This document shows positions 51,668-64,000 of a stretch of 64,000 nucleotides of DNA, piece by piece. How positions within the stretch are numbered: the first letter of the stretch is position 1; every line of letters begins with the position of its first letter. The stretch comes from Gammaproteobacteria bacterium UBA5078. Lineage in GTDB: Bacteria; Pseudomonadota; Gammaproteobacteria; Pseudomonadales; Pseudohongiellaceae. The position numbers and the translations under genes were made by a program. Below the pieces are notes generated by a model, which was given only the letters and a program-made list of their open reading frames with translations, had not been told where the DNA came from and ran no database searches. The stretch is taken from positions 253,649-317,648 of the forward strand of contig DIAM01000004.1 in NCBI GenBank assembly GCA_002416505.1, written 5' to 3'.

Positions 51668-52573
51668 TCAACCGCTTTGACAACTGTCTGCCACTTTAAG
51701 CTGTGGGGCTGTGTCGGCTTGGATGAATGCGACGATACGGTCTAACACTTCGGGTGTACGTAGGATGCGAAAATGGCCCGTTCCCTCAACTTCGACAAAC
51801 TGTGCTTGCGGCCAGTTCGTGTGCACGTTTTTTGACTGATGAATTGGGATAACCCGATCATCTTTGTCGTGCAATATCAGCGCGCTTTCGACGTTGATGG
51901 TCTTAACGAAATCGCTCACATTAAACCCCGCAACGTCTATATTCGCCGCCCGCAGACGCTCGATTAGGCGCTGCTGCACTTTATCCGACACGCCGACCCT
52001 GTCCGCCACGTCGCTAATTCGATCCGCGAAGCGGTCTGGGGTGGTCACCAACACCGCCTTCTTCAGTGACAGCAAGGGGTTCTGAAATAGCGCATAGCTT
52101 ATCGCCACGCCACCGAAAGAGTGGCTAATAATCGATTCCACCTGTAACTCTTCCAATAGCTTCCCAACTAGCTCGGAGAACTCGATTGGATTAGTCGTCC
52201 CCCTACTACTAAAGCCATGCGCCGGGGCATCGAACGCGTGTATGTTAAAACCTTTCGCAATGAGCCGCTCGATCAGGTCCGAAAAATTTCCCGCCTGCCC
52301 CTCCCAGCCATGAATTAGCAGCACCGCTGCGCCCGCTCCTGACCAATGATAGGTGCGGATACGAAAATCACGAAACTCGATATCGGACTGCTTTGCTAGA
52401 TTGAGCACGCCCTGCTCACTCTCGCGCAGCTTGATTAGCTGCGGATTGGTCAGCTTGTCGAAGGCGATGTTCGTGAAGGTCTCTGGGAACAGGTTCGACA
52501 ATATAGAGATCAGCCTGCGCTTGAGTGTAGGCGAAGGATAGAATTTTAGTTTGAAAGTCTTGAAAACCGACAT
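51668..52573 (-). CDS. Alpha/beta-fold hydrolase
   Basis: VLLIHGWEGQAGNF, nucleophile elbow SHSFGG, and C-terminal GTGHFRIL. Confidence 0.7.
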   Translation of the reverse strand: MSVFKTFKLKFYPSPTLKRRLISILSNLFPETFTNIAFDKLTNPQLIKLRESEQGVLNLAKQSDIEFRDFRIRTYHWSGAGAAVLLIHGWEGQAGNFSDLIERLIAKGFNIHAFDAPAHGFSSRGTTNPIEFSELVGKLLEELQVESIISHSFGGVAISYALFQNPLLSLKKAVLVTTPDRFADRISDVADRVGVSDKVQQRLIERLRAANIDVAGFNVSDFVKTINVESALILHDKDDRVIPIHQSKNVHTNWPQAQFVEVEGTGHFRILRTPEVLDRIVAFIQADTAPQLKVADSCQSG

Positions 52574-52587
52574 GACGTGTACCTAGC

Positions 52588-53676
52588 TCAGGAAGCGCGG
52601 GCTCTAAACTCTCGGGGAGTCATACCATGAGTCTCTCTAAAAGCCTTATTGAATGCGGAGAGCGAATTGTAGCCTACATCCATCGCAATTTTCGCAATCG
52701 AATCTTCCGAATCGGCAATCAACTGGGTCGCCTCATTTATTCGATAGTAGTTTAGAAATTGATTGAAATTCCGAAAGCCCATAGCCTGATTGATTGTAGT
52801 GCGCAGCCTCTGTTCCGAGACAGACAGCGTGTCGCTGAGCCTACTAAGAGTTAAGCCGGTTTCTCTATAAGATTTTTGTACGCTCATCAGCTCATCGATT
52901 CTTAGTTTTAGCTTTTCATCCTTGTTAGAAGCCTTTTCGCCAATCTTGTCATTAGAAATGCCGATATCGACGTGAGATGCATTCTCTAGCAATAGCTCCG
53001 GATCTCTGTCGAATCTGAAGATGGCAAAGTTCAGGGATAGGGTCCACATAAATACCGCACCGTAGATCAACGGACTCGCTATTCCAATAACGGAAATATT
53101 GCTGTGCGCAGGCAGCAATGATTGCAACAGAGGAAATAGTGCATCCACGGACAGCGTAAAAACGATGACAAGGCTCATGCTGATTACGAAGGGGAGTCGC
53201 AATCGTCGCCGTTCTTCCAGTAAATCCCCTCGACGTCCTTTAACTCCCAAGTAAATCACATCAAAGCTCAGACCCACCATAATCAGCAATGGGAATAGCT
53301 CGCCTATATAGTAGCCCGTCATTCCGGTATCCAGATTCAGATAGTCCAGTACAAAATAGAGTGTCTGCAGCGTGAAATAGAGCGCTATTAGCCCCAGCCC
53401 ATAGGCGGGGACTCTCTTCTCATCGGTGAAGAAGGTGACCGAGAACAGCCACAGTGCGGCGGGCGTGAGGATAGCTAGGCTCGAGAGCAAGAAGTCGAGC
53501 GGAGCGATTGTGTCGATCACCGGAATGGCGCCAAGCAGGAACGAGGCGAGGCAGATCGTGAAAAATATCAGAAAACGGCCCAGACGCTGGCCTCGTGCCC
53601 GCGAATAGGTGTAACTGCCAAGCAGGAGCAGCTGTGAAATAGCTAGCCCCGATAAAAGGATATTGAGATCATCCAT
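52588..53676 (-). CDS. AraC-family transcriptional regulator with a multi-TM N-terminal membrane domain
   Basis: About 6-7 hydrophobic helices (residues 1-225), then the AraC HTH LSDTLSVSEQRLRTTINQAMGFRNFNQFLNYYRINEA...GYNSLSAFNKAFRETHGMTPREFR. Confidence 0.7.
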   Translation of the reverse strand: MDDLNILLSGLAISQLLLLGSYTYSRARGQRLGRFLIFFTICLASFLLGAIPVIDTIAPLDFLLSSLAILTPAALWLFSVTFFTDEKRVPAYGLGLIALYFTLQTLYFVLDYLNLDTGMTGYYIGELFPLLIMVGLSFDVIYLGVKGRRGDLLEERRRLRLPFVISMSLVIVFTLSVDALFPLLQSLLPAHSNISVIGIASPLIYGAVFMWTLSLNFAIFRFDRDPELLLENASHVDIGISNDKIGEKASNKDEKLKLRIDELMSVQKSYRETGLTLSRLSDTLSVSEQRLRTTINQAMGFRNFNQFLNYYRINEATQLIADSEDSIAKIAMDVGYNSLSAFNKAFRETHGMTPREFRARAS

Positions 53677-53954
53677 AAAAATATTGAAGCCCGTTTACGT
53701 CAATAACGCTATTTGTGAACTGGAGTGAACGGCATATTGCTCCCTGACCTAGGCAATGAGGCGGGTAAACGATTGCTAATCTTTGAAAAAGTGCCAATTC
53801 TCAGAAAACGCTCAGCATTAGCAACTTATCAGGAAGTATTCTTTGTCGAAAAAGGAGTAACCTGACAGCCGAAACACGATTATACAGTTTTCTGTGTGTT
53901 TTACACACTCGGGCTGTAACAACCCCTGCGATAAGAAGATTGAAGGAGAAATAC

Positions 53955-55394
53955 ATGCGAATTTCGTCATTAATAAACAAAGGCTTGCTGCTGGCATTTT
54001 CGGGGCTAGCTTTCTCGCCTCTATTGGCCGCTCAGGAAGTGACATTCCATAAAGATATCGAGCCGATACTACAACGTAGTTGTCAGACTTGTCACCGGGA
54101 CGGCGGCGTTGCCCCAATGCCATTGGTAACCTATGACGAGACGGCTCCATTTGCCGGGCTCATTGAGTATAAAACGAGTCTACGCGACCGCGCCGGCGCT
54201 ATGCCGCCTTTCTATGCAGAGAAGAATATCGGCATTCAACACATCAAGGATGACCCTTCACTGACTGACGCGGAGCTTGCCGCGATCTCCACTTGGGCGC
54301 GTTCAGGCGCACCACAGGGCGATGCTGCCGACGCTCCGGCGCCGCTGGTGTTCGACAATAATGCCAAGTGGAAGCTCGGCGAGCCTGATCAGATTGTGCG
54401 ACTCAAGGATTTCCTCATGGAAGGGGGGCGACCCGACTGGTGGGGCGAGCTTCCTAGTGTGAGCACTGGCATGACGGAAGACCGCTACGTGAAGTCCGTT
54501 GAAATCATTGAAGTAAACGACGTGAATGAAGGTGTGGCCGCGTCCGATACCGTGGGTGGTTTGTATATATTCCACCACATGATCTGGCGTACGGAAGTTG
54601 TAGACGAGAATGGCAAAATCATTCCTGGTCAGTCTGTTTCCTTCCCCGTTCACGAAGTGGGTCGCAATGGCGACGTCTTCGACCCGGAAGCGGGCCCATT
54701 ACTGGCAGCGAACACCGCTTTCTTCACCGATTCGGTGCATATGCACTCCAATGGGCGTGATACGGTTGGTCACTTGGAGATAGGCTTCAGGTTCCACCCG
54801 AGAGGCTATGAGCCCAAGTACAAATCTGCCATTAGTATCCTAGGCAATGGTGTGGATATCAGCGTTGAAGGTGATGCTAAGGATCAGGAATTACATGCCT
54901 ATCAAGTACTAACGCAAAATACCAAAGTCATCACCTTTGAGCCTCACCTGCACGCCCCTGGCGAGCGTATGTGTCTGGAGGCTATCTGGGGTTATTCTGT
55001 GGAGACTATTTCCTGCGTGGGCTATGACCACAACTGGGTGAGAGGATACGGCTTCGAAGATAACTACACGCCACTGCTGCCTAAGGGCACTATTCTTCAC
55101 ATCACTGGCTATTTCGACAACACCAAGGCCAATCCCAATGTGCCGGATCCACGCAACTGGCAGGGTTCGGGTAACCGCTCGGTAACCAATATGTTTATCG
55201 ACTTAGGCATCCGCGTGACCATGACTGACGAGCAGTTCGATGAAGAGATGGAGAAGCGCCGCAACAATCTGAACCTTGGTCCAAACGATCACGTGATTGG
55301 TTGCCCTCTATGTCTAGCACCGCTGGTATGGCCTCTCGAGTCAGATTCAGCCAATGCTAACGAGCAACTGGATGACAAGGTAGCCGGTAACTAA
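53955..55394 (+). CDS. Secreted mono-haem cytochrome c fused to a PHM/DBH-like (copper type II) monooxygenase-like domain
   Basis: GAAGGAGAA SD lies 4 nt before ATG 53955. Signal peptide. CQTCH at 54081-54095, HHM at 54573-54581, HMH at 54738-54746, HLHAPG at 54945-54962. The order and spacing resemble the CuH/CuM ligand sets of peptidylglycine/dopamine monooxygenases. Confidence 0.6.
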   Translation: MRISSLINKGLLLAFSGLAFSPLLAAQEVTFHKDIEPILQRSCQTCHRDGGVAPMPLVTYDETAPFAGLIEYKTSLRDRAGAMPPFYAEKNIGIQHIKDDPSLTDAELAAISTWARSGAPQGDAADAPAPLVFDNNAKWKLGEPDQIVRLKDFLMEGGRPDWWGELPSVSTGMTEDRYVKSVEIIEVNDVNEGVAASDTVGGLYIFHHMIWRTEVVDENGKIIPGQSVSFPVHEVGRNGDVFDPEAGPLLAANTAFFTDSVHMHSNGRDTVGHLEIGFRFHPRGYEPKYKSAISILGNGVDISVEGDAKDQELHAYQVLTQNTKVITFEPHLHAPGERMCLEAIWGYSVETISCVGYDHNWVRGYGFEDNYTPLLPKGTILHITGYFDNTKANPNVPDPRNWQGSGNRSVTNMFIDLGIRVTMTDEQFDEEMEKRRNNLNLGPNDHVIGCPLCLAPLVWPLESDSANANEQLDDKVAGN

Positions 55395-55433
55395 CACAAG
55401 TTGGATTAGCTACCCCTCGTTTATGCAATGTCG

Positions 55434-55461
55434 CAGAGGGGCTCAGAATTGAGCCCCTCTG
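55434..55461 (+). other. Perfect 11-bp hairpin (CAGAGGGGCTC agaatt GAGCCCCTCTG) between the two genes of the pair
   Basis: Read directly. It has no U-tract, so it may be an intercistronic stabiliser or partial terminator. Confidence 0.4.
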
Positions 55462-55515
55462 TGGCCCAAAATATTCACTTATCGGAGATCTTGCTGGAAA
55501 GGCAAGAAACTAGAT

Positions 55516-56532
55516 ATGAAAATTAAGTTCAAAGATTTATCGAAATCAGCACTTGTTATATTGTTCAGTTCACTGGCGCTAACGTCGACCACTGTGTTTG
55601 CACAGCAGGATTACGAGTATGCCAAGAACACATATTTGAGCGGTCAGCATGCAGAAGTGGCTTATGAGGGCTGGGAAGAAAACGAAGACGGCACGATCAC
55701 CATGACCTTTGGCTACTTCAACCACAACTGGGAAGAAGAGCTCGATATACCAATTGGCGAAAACAACCGCTTCACTACAGGCGAGGCAGACCGGGGTCAG
55801 CCTACTCATTTCCTGCCCCGCCGTAACCGCTTCACCTTCGGGGTCATCGTGCCCGGAGATTTCGGAGATAAAGAGCTGGTTTGGGAACTCACTTCTCCGA
55901 ATGGGGTGACTCGCGCAGCCTATGGCACTCTGCGTGCGGACTACAAAATAAACAACATCACCATCATGTCTGAAACCGGTTCTCTGGGTTCAGGCACGTC
56001 AGATGAAGCGACTAGGGCTAATATCCCCCCGTCTTCAGAGTTAATCGGAGACGGGTTTAGAACCGTCAGTGTAGGTGAAACACTCACTTTCCAGACTCAA
56101 TTGAGCGACGATGGTGTGCCAGAGCCCTTCGATCCGATGCGACGCGTTAGACTTCTGGGTGGCGCGGCAGCGGCCTTCACAACGCCTGAAATGGTTCGCG
56201 ACATGATGATGAAGATGCCGCCACCGAAGCCAACGGTAGCCAAAAACAATGGCCTATACCTGTCTTGGAATGTCTACCGTGCGCCAGAAGGCTTAAGCAA
56301 CGTTCAAGAATCCGTGCATTTCTATCCAGCGCAGGTTAAGCCATGGGAAGATACCCGACCATCGGCTAACTCTCCGTGGAGTTGGTTGTGGTTGCCACCG
56401 AAGTTGCCTGAGGATGGGATTATAGAAGTAAGCGTCACTTTCGACGAGCCGGGCACCTATGTGCTCTGGGGACGGGCGGATGATGGCGGCCTCTTCACGG
56501 ATCAGTATCTAACTGTCAACGTAAGAGAATAA
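55516..56532 (+). CDS. Secreted Cys-free protein with a Met-rich motif and an Ig/PKD-like C-terminus; partner of the haem-copper protein
   Basis: Signal peptide ALVILFSSLALTSTTVFAQQ. MVRDMMMKMPPP at 56191-56226. C-terminal GTYVLWGRADDGGLFTDQYLTVNV. No family recognised. Confidence 0.5.
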   Translation: MKIKFKDLSKSALVILFSSLALTSTTVFAQQDYEYAKNTYLSGQHAEVAYEGWEENEDGTITMTFGYFNHNWEEELDIPIGENNRFTTGEADRGQPTHFLPRRNRFTFGVIVPGDFGDKELVWELTSPNGVTRAAYGTLRADYKINNITIMSETGSLGSGTSDEATRANIPPSSELIGDGFRTVSVGETLTFQTQLSDDGVPEPFDPMRRVRLLGGAAAAFTTPEMVRDMMMKMPPPKPTVAKNNGLYLSWNVYRAPEGLSNVQESVHFYPAQVKPWEDTRPSANSPWSWLWLPPKLPEDGIIEVSVTFDEPGTYVLWGRADDGGLFTDQYLTVNVRE

Positions 56533-56557
56533 CGGCTCCTAGGAGCTGGGCTTAAAC

Positions 56558-56597
56558 AAAAAAACCAGAGCAAGGGTTCCCCTTCTCTGGTTTTTTT
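56558..56597 (+). terminator. Strong bidirectional-looking Rho-independent terminator
   Basis: A7-ACCAGAG(c)AAGGG-ttc-CCCTT-CTCTGGT-T7. The stem has 12 bp with one bulge and is flanked by an A-run and a T-run. Confidence 0.8.
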
Positions 56598-56611
56598 GTA
56601 TCCGCAGCAAC

Positions 56612-56808
56612 GCGTAACTAGCAACTACCCACAAGAACTACTGTGCATGTTGGCGGACAATAAAGTTTTAAATTGAAACTCCCTAGAACCCGCATAATAA
56701 ATGCCAACGGACAATATAGTTTTAAAATATGTTAACACATTGCGTAACTAGACAAGGAACTAACTGGACAATAGAGATTTAAAGTAAAGTTTATTATTTA
56801 TAATAAAC
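56612..56808. repeat. Cluster of short direct repeats and a palindrome in an AT-rich non-coding gap
   Basis: GGACAATA[A/T/G]AG[T/A]TTTAAA occurs at 56655, 56709 and 56766 (spacing 54 and 57 bp). GCGTAACTAG occurs at 56612 and 56742. GTTTATTAT-tt-ATAATAAAC lies at 56789-56808. Confidence 0.6.
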
Positions 56809-57013
56809 AAAAGGTTACTGAGAGATCAACATTAGCTAATTTAGTCAACCAGCGTGTAGACTCTAATCCCCCCACTTATAACCGACCTTCTAGATAGAGG
56901 GTTACGCTGCTAGTCGTAATCGTCTTGGAGGCACTACCCAATCGCAGTGCTGGGTCTTTCGTTGATGTATTTCCACTGCTAATTCGTGTTGACTATATAT
57001 CCTTAAAGTGTCT

Positions 57014-57409
57014 ATGACTCTAGGGCCTTACCAACCCCACCAATTCCTTCAAGTTCTACTCGATATAGTCTGCATGAACTACGAACCAGAACCCTTAGGT
57101 ACCACACGGCTCAACTCAAATATTTGCTTTCTATACGACGCAATACCTAACCAACCATTTAAGCTGGTTTACTTATCAATAGTTAGTGAGTCCGGTGAGG
57201 GTTTTGGAAGCTTTGGGAAGAGAGCTATAGAACCCTATGCCAGAACTCTTGGCCATCACCTAAATCGCGCACAGTCGCTGTTCGTCGTTTGCTCAACTGG
57301 AGAAGAACGTTACCTGATAAGCCAGGTAACAGAAACAAATGAAACATTGCACTGTGTGCTAACAGTTGAAGAGTTCTTATCCAACTCAGTCTCTGTAATT
57401 TCTGACTAG
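57014..57409 (+). CDS. Orphan hypothetical ORF in the AT-rich gap (doubtful)
   Basis: The only ORF above 100 aa in 1.4 kb. It has no SD and no recognisable motif. Confidence 0.2.
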   Translation: MTLGPYQPHQFLQVLLDIVCMNYEPEPLGTTRLNSNICFLYDAIPNQPFKLVYLSIVSESGEGFGSFGKRAIEPYARTLGHHLNRAQSLFVVCSTGEERYLISQVTETNETLHCVLTVEEFLSNSVSVISD

Positions 57410-57950
57410 CCAAGTTTAGATAATAGGGAAAATTGCTGCGCGGGGTTTTGTTTGGAGAACGCGTTAAGTAGCAGATTGAGGATTTCACTTTGGGCGTACT
57501 TTCTAATCTAAATTAGCCGTTTCCTATAAAAGACTCAATCAATATTACGAGAAATTTTTACTTATGAGCACCCTGTTTTTAAGGGAGGATTACCCGTTGC
57601 GAGATTTTGCACTATACAGCACAACAATACACAACCAACCCCGCAAAAGTCCCGCAGAGTTTTATTCAAATTAAACACCTATTAGGTAGCGCACCCTCCC
57701 AACAGGTCGATGTAACTGTGTCTTCTTAATTAGCAGGCCCTGACTTTTTACTATACCCATAACAACGGTTAAATCGTTGGCGAGTCTATGTGGTGATCTT
57801 CAATCATTTGCACTGGGTCAGCGCACACGGAAAATACCACCTCAAATGGCTTCCGGCTTCATTAGACCAATACATGACGTGTATATGGCGTAAAGGGGAC
57901 GGACGAATTTAGCGAGATAAACTCCTCCACCCCCTTTAAACGTTACGTCA

Positions 57951-60110
57951 TCAAAAATCGACGGTAAGCCCGACCTTGACAGTGCGCCCCAGCCCCATGG
58001 TGTTGTAACCATTGTAGGTAAATGCCTGGGCACGCGCGGGAAAGTAGGCTTCGTTGAACAGATTTTCAACACCCAGCGACACCTGCCAGTTATCCCGGCG
58101 GTAGCTACCGCTGGCATTGACCACATCGTAGCTCTCCACCGGCGCTTCGGCGCCCGAGTAACGGCCGGTGATCGGATCAATCGGGTCAAAGCGGTCACGG
58201 TTCATCACCTTCAGCCACTGCACACTGGCAACCAGACCATTGCCCAGCCGGTAATCCGCCCATGCCGTGAACTTCGGTGGCGCTATTTTGCGCGCATCCA
58301 GATAAATGCCGGTATCCGGATCCCGTCCTTCAACATAGCTGTAGGTCGTGCCCAGCTCCAGGTGCTCGCTGGCCTGGAGACCCAACGCCACTTCCCAGCC
58401 TTCGATTTTCTGCGGCGCACGCACCGGCACATACAGACCGCTGCCTGGAGGGCTCTCCACCGTCGCTGTGCCCAACTCGGATTCACTCTCATAGACGGCT
58501 AGCTCATAGTTGAACACACCGTAGCGGCCCGACACACCGATTTCGTAATGGTCAATTACTGAGGCTTCGGTCTGCACCTGATCCAAGTTGGGCACCGAGG
58601 CGGCGCGCAGCAACAGGCCCAGATCTGACACATCAAAACCCTGCGAATAACTGATGAACGGGCTGAACGCATCGCTGACGTTGTAACGCACGCCTACATT
58701 GTAGGTCGTGTCACTGTAAGACAGCTTGCCCCCGGCTATCGGGTTGCCACCCCGGCAGACATTGTCGGTACCGCACATGCGCAGCGTCGTGTAATCAGGC
58801 ACATCAATATCCACCTGTTCATCACGCAGCCCCGCTTTGAACACCCAGTCACCGGCCACCCATTTGGACTGCAAGTACAGCGCCTCATTGCTCATGTCCA
58901 TTTCCGGCACCCAGATACGTCCATCGGCCAGTGGTTGCGAAGTGACATCATTGAGCAAGTCTGCCCCGTAGATAAACGTGGCCTCAATGCCGTCAAAATC
59001 GAACACACTTTCCAAGTTCACTCGGACACCGTACTTTTCTGACAGTATCACCGAATTGCCGCCACTAAGGCCGGCCGTCGCATCGGCGAAAAACGATGAA
59101 TAGAAAAAGACGTTTTGAATCTCCTGGGTATACGCATCCACCGTCAGGCTGGTGTTGGCCAGTAGCTGGGCATCGCGATACTGCAACACGACATTTGTGT
59201 TGCCATCCACGCCCTGAGCCTCACCCAGAATCGTCTGCCCGGCAGTCGGTTTCACCGCATAGGTCTTGGTACCATCATTGATACTGCTGGTAACATCAAT
59301 CAGCCGCTCAACCTGCTCAGAATCATAGTAGTTGGCGGTCAAACTCAGCGACTTGTCTACATCAATCTGAAAGCCGAGCTTGCCAAACAGGCTCTGCGCC
59401 CGAACCCCGGACAGGCCGTACAGCGCCTGACCAATGATGTCGCCATCGGCATCGCGCTGCAAGCCATTGTCATCACGGGTGGCATTGAATACGTAATTGA
59501 AGCGATCGAGGGTGCCGTCCACCGTGACGCTGCTGCGCGAACCAGCAGTGTCGTCAGATTCGACCTGGTTGAGGCTGACTTGCTGGTTCAGTTCGACATT
59601 AAACGACTGTTCACCCGCCTCTCGCGTAATGTAGTTGATGATACCGCCGGCGGCACCATTACCATAGATTGACGTGGCACCCTTGACCACTTCAATGCGC
59701 TGCAGAGCTGCCGGATCAATGGTGCGCACATCCAGCGCGCCATTGCGCAGCGGTGTTGACTGCGGCACACCGTCAATCATCACCAACGTGCTGCGCCCGC
59801 GCAGAGTCTGGCCAAAATTGCTGGTGCTGTTGGTGGCCGGCGCCATGCCAGATACCCGAAAGCTCAGGATGTTCTGCAATTCTGCCGTCAACTTCAGGTC
59901 CTGCTGCAGCGCGTCGCTATCAATCACCGTCACTGATGCCGTGACCTCATCTAGCCGCTCCGGGCTGCGGCTGCCGGTGACAATCAACTCCTCAATCTGT
60001 CCGTCCTGCTCGGGCGGAGATTGCCCGACAGTCTGGGCCAATGCCGCGTTGCCCGGTAACACGACAGTGCCAAAACTAGCAATCGCGCTGACCAATAACA
60101 ATTTTTTCAT
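57951..60110 (-). CDS. TonB-dependent outer-membrane receptor (siderophore-type)
   Basis: Signal peptide, plug (EELIVTGSRSPERLDEVTASVTVIDSDAL; RIEVVKGATSIYGNGAAGGIINYIT), a long beta-barrel, and a terminal aromatic residue (...GLTVDF). ATG 60110. Confidence 0.9.
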   Translation of the reverse strand: MKKLLLVSAIASFGTVVLPGNAALAQTVGQSPPEQDGQIEELIVTGSRSPERLDEVTASVTVIDSDALQQDLKLTAELQNILSFRVSGMAPATNSTSNFGQTLRGRSTLVMIDGVPQSTPLRNGALDVRTIDPAALQRIEVVKGATSIYGNGAAGGIINYITREAGEQSFNVELNQQVSLNQVESDDTAGSRSSVTVDGTLDRFNYVFNATRDDNGLQRDADGDIIGQALYGLSGVRAQSLFGKLGFQIDVDKSLSLTANYYDSEQVERLIDVTSSINDGTKTYAVKPTAGQTILGEAQGVDGNTNVVLQYRDAQLLANTSLTVDAYTQEIQNVFFYSSFFADATAGLSGGNSVILSEKYGVRVNLESVFDFDGIEATFIYGADLLNDVTSQPLADGRIWVPEMDMSNEALYLQSKWVAGDWVFKAGLRDEQVDIDVPDYTTLRMCGTDNVCRGGNPIAGGKLSYSDTTYNVGVRYNVSDAFSPFISYSQGFDVSDLGLLLRAASVPNLDQVQTEASVIDHYEIGVSGRYGVFNYELAVYESESELGTATVESPPGSGLYVPVRAPQKIEGWEVALGLQASEHLELGTTYSYVEGRDPDTGIYLDARKIAPPKFTAWADYRLGNGLVASVQWLKVMNRDRFDPIDPITGRYSGAEAPVESYDVVNASGSYRRDNWQVSLGVENLFNEAYFPARAQAFTYNGYNTMGLGRTVKVGLTVDF

Positions 60111-60243
60111 GCTAACCACCTTTCCAAACAGGAATCATTCTTAAGTGGCGAGCATTCTAATGGGAGAAATTAGTGTAATGCAAACGATTCTCATTTATAA
60201 TCGCATTCTATCTTGCTGAGACATATGGGTCTGACCAAAAGCC

Positions 60244-61437
60244 ATGCCACTGCTTCGAAAACTCCACCTGTATTCCGGATTGATTCTGTCACTGGCGCTG
60301 GTGCTGCTCGCGCTCTCCGGCGTCGCACTGCTGTACAAAAACGAATACTGGGCCCTGCGCTACCAGCAGATTGACGAGCAGGATGTGGTGCCCGAAGCTG
60401 CCAATTTGGCCACAGCCATCGAACGAGCCTACCAGCACTACGGTGCACGTTTGGGCAGCCTGAAAATGCCCGAACCTGACCTGGCCGCTTACCATGTCTA
60501 TCTGCCGGATCACGAAGAAGCACTACTGGACATCAACAATCACGGCATCATTGACGAATGGCAGCCCAGCCAGCGACTGATGGGACTACTATTCGATATC
60601 CATGCTCATCTGATGGCCGGCGATCGCGGCGAAATTGTCGTCGGTATCATCGGTCTGATTGCCGGACTCATGGCCATCTCCGGCCTTATTCTGTGGTGGC
60701 CCACACGAAAAACTTTCAGCTGGAAGCGCCTGTGGCCCAAGGATCTGAGCCGTCGCAGCCTGCTGTCCTGGCACCGCGATGCCGGCATGGTGCTCAGCCC
60801 CTTGTTGCTACTATTCATGCTCAGCGGCAGCGCCATGGTCTTTTACACCAGCGTGCAAAAAGGCTTGAACGCGCTGTTTGGCGATCCGGTGCCTCAGATT
60901 GTGCTGCCGTCAGGAACCGCAGTCGACGTCGAGTCGCTGCTGTTGCCGTTATCTACCGGCGCCTCGGCCCAAACTGCTGAACGCACACTCCGGTTTTCTA
61001 CGGCCGCCCTGCCACTGCCTGACGCAGATACCCTGGCACGAGTGCAGCAGGCTCTGCATGGTGCACGGCTGACCTTCTACTACGCCGACGCCCTGCCGCA
61101 AGGATTCCATCGCTTCCGCCTGAAGCGCGACTGCGAGCTGCACCCCAACGGCCTGAGTTTTGTCTACACCGATGCCCACAATGGCGATATTGTTCATGTC
61201 AAGGACGCCTGCGCCATGCCCACCGGTGAGCGCATCACCAATATGATCTACCCGCTGCACGCTGCCAAAACGGGCGGTGAACTCTACCGGGTGCTGGCGT
61301 TGATGACTGCGCTGGTGCTCGCCGGCCTATCAGTGACAGGGGTGGTGACCTATGTGCAACAATTGCGTCGTCAGCGTCAGCGCCAGATCATGCTGGAACA
61401 GAAGTCCCTGGCCGAATCGATTGGCGATCGGAGATAG
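60244..61437 (+). CDS. PepSY-associated TM-helix protein (PiuB/FoxB-like)
   Basis: LRKLHLYSGLILSLALVLLALSGVALLY, FDIHAHLMAGDRGEIVVGIIGL, IYPLHAAKTGG, four TM segments. It is divergent from the TonB-dependent receptor. Confidence 0.8.
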   Translation: MPLLRKLHLYSGLILSLALVLLALSGVALLYKNEYWALRYQQIDEQDVVPEAANLATAIERAYQHYGARLGSLKMPEPDLAAYHVYLPDHEEALLDINNHGIIDEWQPSQRLMGLLFDIHAHLMAGDRGEIVVGIIGLIAGLMAISGLILWWPTRKTFSWKRLWPKDLSRRSLLSWHRDAGMVLSPLLLLFMLSGSAMVFYTSVQKGLNALFGDPVPQIVLPSGTAVDVESLLLPLSTGASAQTAERTLRFSTAALPLPDADTLARVQQALHGARLTFYYADALPQGFHRFRLKRDCELHPNGLSFVYTDAHNGDIVHVKDACAMPTGERITNMIYPLHAAKTGGELYRVLALMTALVLAGLSVTGVVTYVQQLRRQRQRQIMLEQKSLAESIGDRR

Positions 61438-61729: not shown

Positions 61730-63922
61730 TTAAGGCAAAGTCAGCGCTACTAGATGGGCAGAGGTGCCAGGAGCGCTGACGCTCATCACTAGATATTGCT
61801 TACCTTCAAACATATAGGTAATTGGCAGGCCAGTCACGGCACCAGGCATCTCAAGCTTAGCGACTATCTGACCTGTGGCCTTATCGTGTGCCCAAAGCAC
61901 AGCATCTCCGCCCACGCCCTCGCCATCAAACAGCAACGACTTGGTCAGAAGTAAACCGGAACGAGTTGGTTTTCCGGTACGCGGGATATCGACGCCTTTG
62001 AGCAGTGGGTGATTGGTAATGGACGCGGGTGTGTCACCATTTGGGATCATCCAGACGTGATCCGCTGTATCCATATTAATTGCAGTTATACGACCATATG
62101 GTGGTTTGACTAAGGGGATCCCTTCAACGGATGGGGTACGACTGCCACCGTGAATGTAACGTGCGCTGGAGACTTTCTCGTCATGAACCAGTGACAGAAC
62201 GCTTGTGGCAGTTCTGGAGGGCACATAAATCAGACCGGTCTCGGGATCATAGGCAGCCCCCTCCCAATTGGAACCACCAGTAGAGGAGGGTAGGTGCAAT
62301 GTACCCTGCGTTCCGTCCGGGCCTTCAAACAAGGAAGGTGGTGTGAACACAGACGTACTGAAACGGAATTTTGATGCAGCCTCTTTGGCCATAGCAAGAA
62401 TCTGTGGCGTAAAATCAACTAGATCGTCTTCTTGGAAGCCTTGCCGATCATATGGCGCAGGCATAGTCGGATACGGTTGGGTTAATGCTGTCCATTCACC
62501 CGGTACATCAGAGCTTGGCACTTCACGCTCTTCAATCGGAAATAAAGGTTCTCCAGTCGCACGATTGAAAGTGAACAGATGTGACTGCTTCAAAGTCTGA
62601 ATTACCGCGGGTGTGCCATCAGGTAGATCAATAACTAACGGAGCGGCAGGCGTGTCCCAGTCCCACAAATCGTGGTGAGTTGTTTGGAAATGCCAGACTT
62701 TCTTACCGGTTTTATAGTCCAGCGCTACCGTCGAGCTCGAAAACAGATTATTGCCTGGGCGAGCCCCGCCGTAGCGATCTCCGGTCGCGGATTCAACTGG
62801 CAGATAGACTAGACCAAGTTCTTCGTCAGCTGACATGGTCGACCACACACCAGCATTGCCAGTAATATCGGCGCCTGAAAGCCAAGTTTCTGAGCCTTCT
62901 TCGCCTGACTCTGGAATTGTTTTAAATGTCCAAAGCAGATCGCCTGTGGTGGCATCAAATCCCCTAATGTCACCTTTCACATTGCTTGAAGATACAGGTC
63001 GCATACCCACACTGTGGGCGGCACCAGCAATGACCACGCCATCGACAGCTAACGGCATGAATGACATGCCTATGTCGAGATCCTTTCGGTCAGCGGCGCG
63101 TCGCAGGCCCTTCTGTAGATCAACCTTGCCAAAATCACCAAAGGATTCAATTTCACGGCCAGTCGTTGCATCCAAAGCGATAAGAAAATAACCTGGCGTA
63201 ATGAGGTAAATAGTCTCCTGCCCATTGTTATCGTAATAGGTTAGGCCTTTCCCCGAACCTTTTCGCGGCGCATCATCGAATCGCTGTCCCTCATCAGGGC
63301 GCCACATCCATTCGATTTGGCCGCTCGCTGCATTTAATGCCACCACATTGCGGGTCGCTCCAGCAGTAAAAAACACGCGACCATTTATCATTAAGGGGGT
63401 TGTAACACTTATTGACTCGGGTGCTGGACCATATGGACCCATATCAAACTCCCAAGCGATTTTAAGATCATTCACGTTATCGGCATTGATTTGATCCAGT
63501 GGAGCATATCGTGTTCCGTGAAGATCGCCATTGTAACTCGTCCACTCGAACGCCTCTTGAGCAAAAATTGCTTCGTCTTCTGGAACGATAGGCAATGAGG
63601 TCAATGCTTCGACACTGATCGCGCCATTGGCGATAGGAACGTTGCCGGACTTCAGAACAAAGGAAGTTACATCCAAATATTCATCATTGGTCAGAGACCC
63701 GGGAGTCTCAGCAGGCATTGTAGTGCGAATCAAATTGTAGAGGTCCCCGCCAGTACGAGTAAGCCAACGGGCACGTAAACGCGCATCAAATTCGACCGGG
63801 ACGTGACAACGTGCACATTCAGCTTGAAATACGGCTTCACCACGCTCGACGCTGGCATCTTGCGCGCTGGCAGTTGATATGCTCAAAAGGGTGGTTAAGA
63901 CAAGCGCTATATACCTGTTCAT
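61730..63922 (-). CDS. Periplasmic PQQ-dependent dehydrogenase (Gcd/quinate-dehydrogenase clade) with an N-terminal mono-haem cytochrome c domain
   Basis: Signal peptide. CARCH at 63803-63817. Propeller start YNGDLHGTRYAPLDQINADNVNDLKIAWEF. VALDYKTGKKVWHFQTTHHDLWDWD resembles E. coli Gcd HHDLWDMD. ATG 63922 follows an AAGGAAA SD. Confidence 0.8.
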   Translation of the reverse strand: MNRYIALVLTTLLSISTASAQDASVERGEAVFQAECARCHVPVEFDARLRARWLTRTGGDLYNLIRTTMPAETPGSLTNDEYLDVTSFVLKSGNVPIANGAISVEALTSLPIVPEDEAIFAQEAFEWTSYNGDLHGTRYAPLDQINADNVNDLKIAWEFDMGPYGPAPESISVTTPLMINGRVFFTAGATRNVVALNAASGQIEWMWRPDEGQRFDDAPRKGSGKGLTYYDNNGQETIYLITPGYFLIALDATTGREIESFGDFGKVDLQKGLRRAADRKDLDIGMSFMPLAVDGVVIAGAAHSVGMRPVSSSNVKGDIRGFDATTGDLLWTFKTIPESGEEGSETWLSGADITGNAGVWSTMSADEELGLVYLPVESATGDRYGGARPGNNLFSSSTVALDYKTGKKVWHFQTTHHDLWDWDTPAAPLVIDLPDGTPAVIQTLKQSHLFTFNRATGEPLFPIEEREVPSSDVPGEWTALTQPYPTMPAPYDRQGFQEDDLVDFTPQILAMAKEAASKFRFSTSVFTPPSLFEGPDGTQGTLHLPSSTGGSNWEGAAYDPETGLIYVPSRTATSVLSLVHDEKVSSARYIHGGSRTPSVEGIPLVKPPYGRITAINMDTADHVWMIPNGDTPASITNHPLLKGVDIPRTGKPTRSGLLLTKSLLFDGEGVGGDAVLWAHDKATGQIVAKLEMPGAVTGLPITYMFEGKQYLVMSVSAPGTSAHLVALTLP

Positions 63923-64000
63923 ACAAATTTTCCTTACCAATTATTTCTTGAAAATTACAACTTGGCACTTGCGCGTACTGTGCTGTATTCATCGCCTCAC

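Follow-up and report, generated by a model that had tools for sequence, protein, structure and literature searches.

The PHM/DBH enzymes are non-coupled binuclear copper enzymes, in which the crossing of the ~11 Å solvent-filled cleft between the coppers by electrons is still debated, and to our knowledge all of their characterised members are eukaryotic and ascorbate-dependent. Elsewhere, cytochrome c is fused to copper nitrite reductases (Ralstonia pickettii NirK) and extends an N2O reductase (Wolinella), and haem is paired with copper monooxygenases in two further settings, the cytochrome domain of cellobiose dehydrogenase with LPMO, and cytochrome b561 plus ascorbate with PHM and DBH. The DNA studied here (the window) is a stretch of 64,000 nucleotides from Gammaproteobacteria bacterium UBA5078 (Pseudohongiellaceae; GenBank assembly GCA_002416505.1, contig DIAM01000004.1, positions 253,649 to 317,648 of the forward strand). 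It contains two adjacent genes for secreted proteins, one encoding a c-type cytochrome fused to a PHM/DBH-like protein (the enzyme) and the other a companion without cysteine (the partner). We consider that the products of the two genes are probably the two subunits of a periplasmic copper monooxygenase belonging to the PHM/DBH superfamily of non-coupled binuclear copper enzymes. An initial annotation of the window had proposed that haem c is fused here to a copper monooxygenase like PHM/DBH and that a secreted partner functions together with it, and our analysis supports this core claim; the three open reading frames (ORFs) it described are all present (Table 1), and each of its motif coordinates agrees with the translation.

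The assignment to the superfamily is carried by fold and by ligand conservation. An AlphaFold2 model of the enzyme built from 48 diverse sequences scored 84.3 in the predicted local distance difference test (pLDDT) and 0.79 in predicted template modelling (pTM), with low confidence for the N-terminal helix. When this model was searched against the PDB with Foldseek, ranks 1–31 were all PHM or DBH (E = 1e-9 to 1e-6, probability 1.0, template modelling score on the target 0.50–0.59, ~310 columns), as the proposed fold predicts, and the next match was an unrelated jelly-roll at E = 2.5e-4. A poorer AlphaFold2 model, made from a shallow alignment (pLDDT 58), again gave PHM or DBH for all of its top 31 PDB matches. 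We then aligned a profile of the enzyme family with rat PHMcc using hhalign; the rat sequence was confirmed to be 100% identical to PDB 4e4z_A. H207/H208 fell on H107/H108, H262 on H172, H331/H333 on H242/H244 and M413 on M314, which places the histidines proposed initially, in HHM (H207–M209, 54573–54581), HMH (residues 262–264, 54738–54746) and HLHAPG (residues 331–336, 54945–54962), on the PHM ligands and supplies, in M413, the CuM methionine that had been expected downstream.

Conservation was measured in two sets, an alignment of the enzyme with 25 relatives of 29–67% identity and a broader collection of 74–100 cluster representatives, in which the count varies by position. Among the 25 relatives the invariant residues include C43, C46, H47, M83, H207, H208, H262 and H331, and H333 and M413 are conserved in at least 90%. 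Six other histidines (H233, H264, H314, H359, H382 and H446) are common to the closer clade and are not conserved across this set. In the representatives, the ligands of the CuH-type site are kept in 96 of 99 (H207), 96 of 99 (H208) and 91 of 100 (H262), and those of the CuM-type site in 87 of 93 (H331), 88 of 92 (H333) and 64 of 74 (M413). As judged from these alignments, selection preserves one haem site together with the HH / H / HxH / M set. Two pairs of cysteines co-vary as well. C340 and C354 are both present in 66 representatives, both missing in 19 and found singly in 5, a pattern that suggests a probable disulfide. C450 and C453, which lie in the GCPLC motif, are both present in 21, both missing in 7 and single in 3; this CPLC pair is found in relatives down to ~45% identity and is missing from more distant ones.

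Matches to curated models were found through relatives of the enzyme. The direct Pfam match to Cu2_monooxygen considered in the initial annotation did not appear: neither PF01082 nor PF03712 matched the enzyme at E ≤ 1, and a PDB sequence search with it returned nothing. Distant relatives lie below or near the thresholds. Five of 26 match Cu2_monoox_C, P0422 passes the threshold of that model, and P0307 matches Cu2_monooxygen (163–247) and Cu2_monoox_C (282–394) in the correct order; scores are 15.9–27.7 bits for PF03712 (cutoff 23) and 17 bits for PF01082 (cutoff 30). The PROSITE signatures of the family are H-H-M-x(2)-F-x-C and H-x-F-x(4)-H-T-H-x(2)-G. Both patterns are unmatched by the enzyme, which reads HHMIWRTE and ITFEPHLHAPG at these places; the metal-binding cores HHM and HxHxxG are present, and the flanking F, C and H positions of the signatures are absent.

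Several points weigh against a copper monooxygenase. The enzyme has no Pfam, NCBIfam or PDB sequence match to copper monooxygenase families, its identity to PHM is 10–13%, and the hhalign comparison has a probability of only 8.8% (E = 0.0038), a low value explained by the use of a single sequence as template. In 6 of 74 representatives His stands in place of M413, that the ligands converge on two copper sites is deduced from alignment, and the window contains neither a CopC gene nor a PAL-like gene.

The amino-terminal part of the enzyme is a predicted class-I c-type cytochrome. Its haem-c motif, CQTCH (C43–H47, 54081–54095, with C43, C46 and H47 as the motif residues), was recognised in the initial annotation, and CxxCH is kept in 73 of 74 cluster representatives. 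Pfam gives a sub-threshold match to Cytochrome_CBB3 over residues 35–88 (E = 5.8e-4, 20.6 bits against a cutoff of 27), and in a comparison of the enzyme family profile with the PDB the haem c motifs of 5c2v and 4rlr were matched. The axial methionine suggested at first was M55 (54117–54119, in GGVAPMPL), which is kept in 69 of 77 representatives. M83 (54201–54203) is retained in 89 of 89, and because it belongs to an invariant MPP[FW] motif and lies inside the Pfam cytochrome match, it is the more probable axial ligand of the haem, with M55 as an alternative.

The partner is the obligate companion of the enzyme, adjacent to it or fused with it. In ~70 of 83 related loci the partner gene lies directly 3′ of the enzyme gene, and in the others the contig is truncated or the partner lies within ~5 kb. 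These loci come from four phyla: Gammaproteobacteria (Pseudohongiella, Pseudomonadales), Gemmatimonadota, Acidobacteriota and one Bacteroidota contig. In other lineages the two are joined. Four representative clusters (P0266, P0272, P0275 and P0279) are natural enzyme–partner fusions, and such fusions occur on many independent contigs. The partner is N-terminal to the enzyme in P0275 and C-terminal to it in P0266 and P0279, and the BLASTP matches of the window partner to P0279 and P0275 have E = 2e-35 and 2e-33. P0272 (L084:8001-10094) is a split fusion, in which the N-terminal domain of the partner precedes the cytochrome and its Ig-like C-terminal domain follows the monooxygenase; the two domains of the partner may accordingly contact the enzyme from opposite sides. 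The co-occurrence of the two genes that had been proposed as a check is thereby observed both as adjacency and as fusion.

The second secreted protein without cysteine that the initial annotation placed at 55516–56532 is confirmed. Its length is 338 residues; the N-terminal domain carries the motif DRGQPTHFLPRRNRFTF, and the C-terminal part is Ig-like (DDGxP ... PGxYxLWGRADDGGL). The protein matches no family in Pfam, NCBIfam or the PDB, even when a family profile is used; a PDB sequence search gave five matches at chance level only (E > 0.3), and a Pfam scan of 27 family members returned weak YtkA/Big_7-type matches only, with YtkA in 5 of 27 (best E = 0.02). The protein had been called Met-rich, and a methionine cluster, MVRDMMMKM, had been likened to periplasmic proteins that handle Cu(I). 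The label is overstated, as there are ~10 Met in 338 residues, five of them within this local cluster (residues 226–234, starting at 56191). The cluster is variable in the close clade and lost in the fused homologues; H45 and H98, which are locally invariant, are likewise not conserved there, and of the 36 positions at which the window partner agrees with the fused forms, none is Met, His or Cys. We therefore rejected a role as a Cu(I) carrier like CopC, PCuAC or CusF, since no Met, His or Cys is conserved throughout the family and no family model matches. The partner is inferred to be a non-metal subunit that is structural or gates access of the substrate.

Both families are large. More than 5000 clusters at 90% identity were found for the enzyme, and more than 5000 for the partner; within a library of 50%-identity representatives, 9533 match the enzyme at E ≤ 1e-3 and 303 at E ≤ 1e-30. 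The enzyme homologues are named in the databases only "hypothetical" or "cytochrome c". Unsupervised clustering of neighbouring ORFs in the 83 loci gave only three widespread families, the enzyme in 81 loci, the partner in 73 and CopC in 24; CopD and SURF1 are close to the pair in some loci.

Several divergent enzyme–partner pairs in one genome are common (L007, L009, L012, L029, L035 and L038). Three contigs (L033, L034 and L047) of one metagenome-assembled genome (MAG), CB9_20m.36, carry divergent copies, and some loci have two pairs, or two partner genes, side by side. The presence of multiple divergent pairs in a genome suggests a multigene family with diversified substrates.

Other clades have the same core of cytochrome c and monooxygenase with different accessory domains. 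P0358 (MEZ6196220.1, a Planctomycetota MAG protein named "redoxin domain-containing protein") has an added AhpC/TSA-redoxin domain, in P0355 the unit of redoxin, cytochrome c and monooxygenase is repeated in tandem, and P0318 adds EF-hands. In P0436 and P0438 a signal peptide is followed by a PAL-like NHL propeller, the cytochrome c and the PHM-like monooxygenase. We compared the propeller of P0436 with the catalytic core of rat PAL, whose sequence was confirmed against PDB 3fvz_A, and found 34% identity over 309 colinear columns (E = 1e-45), with the PAL catalytic residues R533, H585, Y654, H690, R706 and H786/D787 kept; between its monooxygenase part and the window enzyme the identity is also 34% (E = 2e-66), with all ligands aligned. 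P0436 and P0438 amount to a bacterial PAM-like architecture. Separate PAL-like NHL genes are also found: one lies beside the P0279 fusion (L085:6779-7921, minus strand), and others are 1–9 kb from the pair in 8 of the 83 loci (L043, L052, L064, L061, L008, L007, L062 and L056). These arrangements hint that hydroxylation followed by cleavage by a lyase is an ancestral theme of the superfamily, and for the pair in the window they give a lead to the class of substrate only.

On balance we think the following route rather likely, from haem c through CuH to CuM, with activation of O2, hydroxylation of a C–H bond and a substrate site completed by the partner. The fused haem c would receive its electrons from the respiratory pool of the periplasm, whether from soluble cytochromes, from bc1 or from quinoprotein dehydrogenases. 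This haem domain lies directly N-terminal to the CuH domain, where DBH has DOMON, and would reduce CuH in place of ascorbate. Electrons would then move from CuH to CuM across the interdomain cleft, and CuM would bind O2 and abstract hydrogen from a C–H bond of the substrate to yield a hydroxylated product. The partner would build or gate the substrate site, or dock the enzyme, and most likely carries no copper. Copper probably comes from chaperones of the CopC type, which are encoded beside the pair in many genomes and not in this window. For the superfamily, our leading guess at the reaction is hydroxylation next to a heteroatom followed by cleavage, i.e. oxidative N- or O-dealkylation, because PAL-like lyases are fused to or neighbour related enzymes.

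Of the other explanations, the one that survives best is that the enzyme modifies periplasmic peptides or proteins as PAM does, at the C-terminus or at a side chain, with the partner as substrate or scaffold. PHM, the closest characterised relative, acts on peptides, and related enzymes have PAL-like lyases, their catalytic residues intact, either fused to them or beside them. However, the residues with which PHM binds the peptide carboxylate, R240, N316 and Y318, align in the hhalign comparison with E329, I415 and L417 of the enzyme, and since they are not kept, the substrate would not be bound as PHM binds peptidyl-glycine. Homologues of the partner terminate in RE, RP or TP rather than in Gly, and their stable fusion on either side of the enzyme argues for a subunit rather than for a substrate that is turned over. 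The window contains neither a precursor-peptide gene nor a PAL-like gene. We regard this explanation as doubtful.

It is unlikely that the pair functions in copper homeostasis or as an oxidase, be it a cuprous oxidase of the periplasm, a buffer for copper or a cytochrome-c:O2 oxidoreductase, in concert with CopC and CopD. Such a role would account for CopC as the sole recurrent neighbour besides the partner (24 of 83 loci) and for CopD and SURF1 near some of the loci, but CopC is equally expected as the metallochaperone of a neighbouring cuproenzyme. The conserved set is that of PHM (HH/H and HxH/M) and not that of a cupredoxin or a multicopper oxidase, the several divergent paralogous pairs per genome fit diversification of substrates better than housekeeping, and sister clades carry a fused PAL-like lyase, an enzyme for a subsequent catalytic step.

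Bacterial cytochrome c peroxidases provide the analogy for a third explanation, in which cytochrome c electrons would reduce H2O2 or O2- at the copper and the enzyme would detoxify peroxide or reactive oxygen or act as a peroxygenase. The periplasmic location, the fused electron-donating haem and the AhpC/TSA-redoxin domains of sister clades would agree with this, but those redoxin domains belong to a different clade and are equally plausible as donors of reductant, the locus bears no sign of a stress regulon, and the strictly conserved partner would be left unexplained; we judge it improbable. Highly improbable is a convergent or fortuitous resemblance to PHM, of a cytochrome c joined to a beta-sandwich that binds no copper, which could appeal to the lack of a curated HMM match and to the database names "cytochrome c" or "hypothetical", but for which the exclusive structural match to PHM/DBH with a gap of some five orders of magnitude in E to the next fold, the alignment of six out of six ligand positions conserved selectively, unlike neighbouring His, and the transitive Pfam matches through distant relatives leave little room.

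These alternatives fit less well than the two-subunit copper monooxygenase because of the conservation of PHM-type ligands, the paralogous pairs within genomes and the fusions to lyases. A wider reading, which we offer tentatively and hold to be possible rather than probable, is that the enzyme belongs to a large unstudied prokaryotic branch of PHM/DBH, in which cytochrome c stands in for ascorbate and which, with the partner or, in sister clades, with a PAL-like lyase, performs periplasmic chemistry of the PAM type: hydroxylation of C–H next to N or O, and then cleavage. If this were true, marine and soil heterotrophs would have a copper-dependent dealkylation or amidation, driven by the respiratory chain, of small molecules or peptides of dissolved organic matter, and the animal PHM–PAL pairing would have a bacterial counterpart or origin.

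Table 1. Features of the enzyme–partner locus, in window coordinates.
Feature	Position	Strand	Basis or remark
Divergent AraC gene	52588-53676	-	ORF, 362 aa
Shared promoter region, 278 bp	53677-53954	.	between AraC gene and enzyme gene
Fusion-protein (enzyme) gene	53955-55394	+	ORF, 479 aa; >5000 homologue clusters
Predicted Sec signal peptide, residues 1-26 (MRISSLINKGLLLAFSGLAFSPLLAA/QE)	53955-54032	+	read by eye from sequence
Class-I c-type cytochrome domain (predicted), ~residues 28-125	54036-54329	+	Pfam, motif conservation
N-terminal beta-sandwich domain, CuH-type site	54372-54824	+	ligands H207, H208 (54573-54578), H262 (54738-54740)
C-terminal beta-sandwich domain, CuM-type site	54837-55289	+	ligands H331, H333 (54945-54953), M413 (55191-55193)
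C-terminal CPLC pair (C450, C453)	55302-55313	+	clade-specific
Intercistronic hairpin	55430-55465	+	perfect; 16-bp stem as RNA; no U-tract
Partner gene	55516-56532	+	ORF, 338 aa
Intrinsic terminator closing the two-gene operon	56556-56599	+	fold energy and U-run

The enzyme gene starts at ATG 53955, 6 nt past AGGAG, and homologues are likewise 479 residues long. DNA similarity with L004, the closest related locus (93% amino-acid identity), spans exactly 53931–56597, i.e. the two genes and the terminator. The terminator, described initially as strong, folds with -27.2 kcal/mol (z = -6.1) and has a U-run; with an A-run on one flank and a T-run on the other, it could act in both directions. The perfect 11-bp hairpin noted earlier between the two genes is present as well, with arms CAGAGGGGCTC/GAGCCCCTCTG at 55434–55461. 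The 121-nt RNA between the genes folds with z = -4.9, extending the stem to the 16 bp given in Table 1, and because there is no U-tract the hairpin is not a canonical terminator. It occurs once in the window, and a repeated element of the repetitive extragenic palindromic (REP) kind was rejected on this ground. The hairpin sits in a 97-nt insert (55394–55490) at a place where L004 has ~5 nt, its enzyme and partner genes being ~30 nt apart. The segment looks like a recent insertion and may tune the relative expression of the two genes. An Rfam scan of 52000–58200 gave no match.

Upstream, the initial annotation had counted a multi-transmembrane AraC regulator as part of the module. The gene is present and divergent, and its product has ~6–7 predicted transmembrane helices followed by a C-terminal HTH_18 domain (PF12833, 70.4 bits against a cutoff of 33.6; PF00165, 39 bits against 26.6). 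A full-length orthologue (50% identity, no gaps) occupies the same divergent position in L001. Such a gene is found in 13 of the 83 loci (~15%), in varying positions, and in L004 it is absent; the regulator is a lineage-specific accessory and not a core component. In this genome it probably controls the operon. The 8-bp inverted repeat TTGCTAAT/ATTAGCAA reported in the shared promoter region is present at 53773–53780 / 53817–53824 and does not exceed chance: a perfect inverted repeat of 8 bp or longer arises in 59 of 300 shuffles of the 278-bp region (~20%), and the region itself has a second one of 8 bp. Nor does the region align with that of other loci in which an AraC gene is divergent. A role of the repeat as an operator was rejected for both reasons, chance level and lack of alignment across loci.

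None of the other neighbours in the window is conserved with the pair; they encode an RpiR regulator, a CNNM/CBS protein, an alpha/beta-hydrolase, a TonB-dependent receptor, a PepSY_TM protein and a PQQ (pyrroloquinoline quinone) dehydrogenase. AraC, the alpha/beta-hydrolase, CNNM, RpiR, the TonB receptor and PepSY were rejected as parts of the module because only the enzyme, the partner and CopC occur in at least 24 loci, and because synteny with L004 ends at the edges of the module. The TonB-dependent receptor (57951–60119, minus strand) is divergent from the PepSY_TM protein (60244–61437, plus strand), a pairing typical of siderophore or metal uptake that is not conserved with the monooxygenase pair. 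Between the terminator and this receptor, 56600–57950 is an AT-rich stretch of ~1.35 kb without a convincing gene, and three copies of GGACAATAnAGTTTTAAA lie at 56655–56677, 56709–56731 and 56766–56788, with a spacing of 54–57 bp and no Rfam match. The gene for the PQQ-dependent dehydrogenase, whose N-terminal domain is a cytochrome c, is located 5 kb from the pair (61730–63940, minus strand). Such dehydrogenases are found within 10 kb of the pair in 13 of the 83 loci, and in one case (L084:5840-7744) the gene immediately precedes that of the fused variant P0272 in the same orientation. Their role could be to donate electrons or to catalyse a downstream step of alcohol oxidation. In loci of the Pseudohongiella type (e.g. 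L014:6926-7795 and L038:8319-8825), recurrent genes upstream of the pair encode a secreted protein of 290 residues without a Pfam match (17 loci), DUF6644 membrane proteins (11 loci) and SURF1 (15 loci).

Lineages that are abundant in the sea and in soil (Pseudohongiellaceae, SAR86-related Gammaproteobacteria, Gemmatimonadota and Acidobacteriota) carry the pair, often in several copies per genome, and despite the size of the two families no curated model or name covers either protein. The pair may represent an overlooked route of periplasmic oxidation. A bacterial version with a covalent haem donor would be self-contained and optically triggerable and should express in E. coli, and the PAL-like fusions of the sister clades bear on the origin of the peptide-amidating enzyme of animals. 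The initial annotation knew of no characterised bacterial system of this composition; our full-text literature searches likewise found no characterised bacterial cytochrome c / PHM protein. The catalytic fold and the metal sites belong to a known family; what is without a characterised precedent that we could find is the combination of a c-type cytochrome as donor, an obligate partner and a prokaryotic periplasmic setting.

Among known systems, the enzyme is closest to the family of PHM (the catalytic core of PAM; 1PHM and 1SDW), DBH (4ZEL), tyramine beta-monooxygenase and MOXD1, with which it shares the fold of two beta-sandwich domains. The order of the ligands is that of PHM (HH, H, HxH, M), with spacings of 54, 69 and 80 here against 64, 70 and 70 in PHM. 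Like them the protein is extracytoplasmic, and its haem domain precedes the CuH domain as the DOMON domain, also of redox or haem type, does in DBH. In contrast to them, it has only 10–13% identity to PHM, falls below the Pfam gathering thresholds and leaves the PROSITE signatures unmatched; it is bacterial and periplasmic, has a fused c-type cytochrome in place of soluble ascorbate and an obligate partner of 338 residues, and, compared with PHM, is without the substrate-binding R240, N316 and Y318. The redoxin-type and PAL-type bacterial proteins (P0358, P0355, P0436 and P0438) have a homologous core, with 30–34% identity and the same ligands, but carry a redoxin or a PAL-like lyase where the clade of the window enzyme has the partner; they, too, appear to be uncharacterised.

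Further afield, the NirK and N2O reductase fusions follow the same design, in which a covalent c-type cytochrome feeds a periplasmic copper active site, but they have cupredoxin and beta-propeller folds, and their chemistry is the reduction of N-oxides rather than the activation of O2 to hydroxylate C–H bonds. The LPMO and b561 pairs are alike in that a haem protein reduces a mononuclear, O2-activating copper site; they differ in using b-type haem and separate proteins, and LPMO has a histidine brace in place of the HH/H and HxH/M sites. Finally, CopC/PmoD-type proteins stand beside copper monooxygenases such as pMMO much as CopC stands beside the pair in 24 of the 83 loci, whereas the window is without CopC and the partner is not CopC-like.

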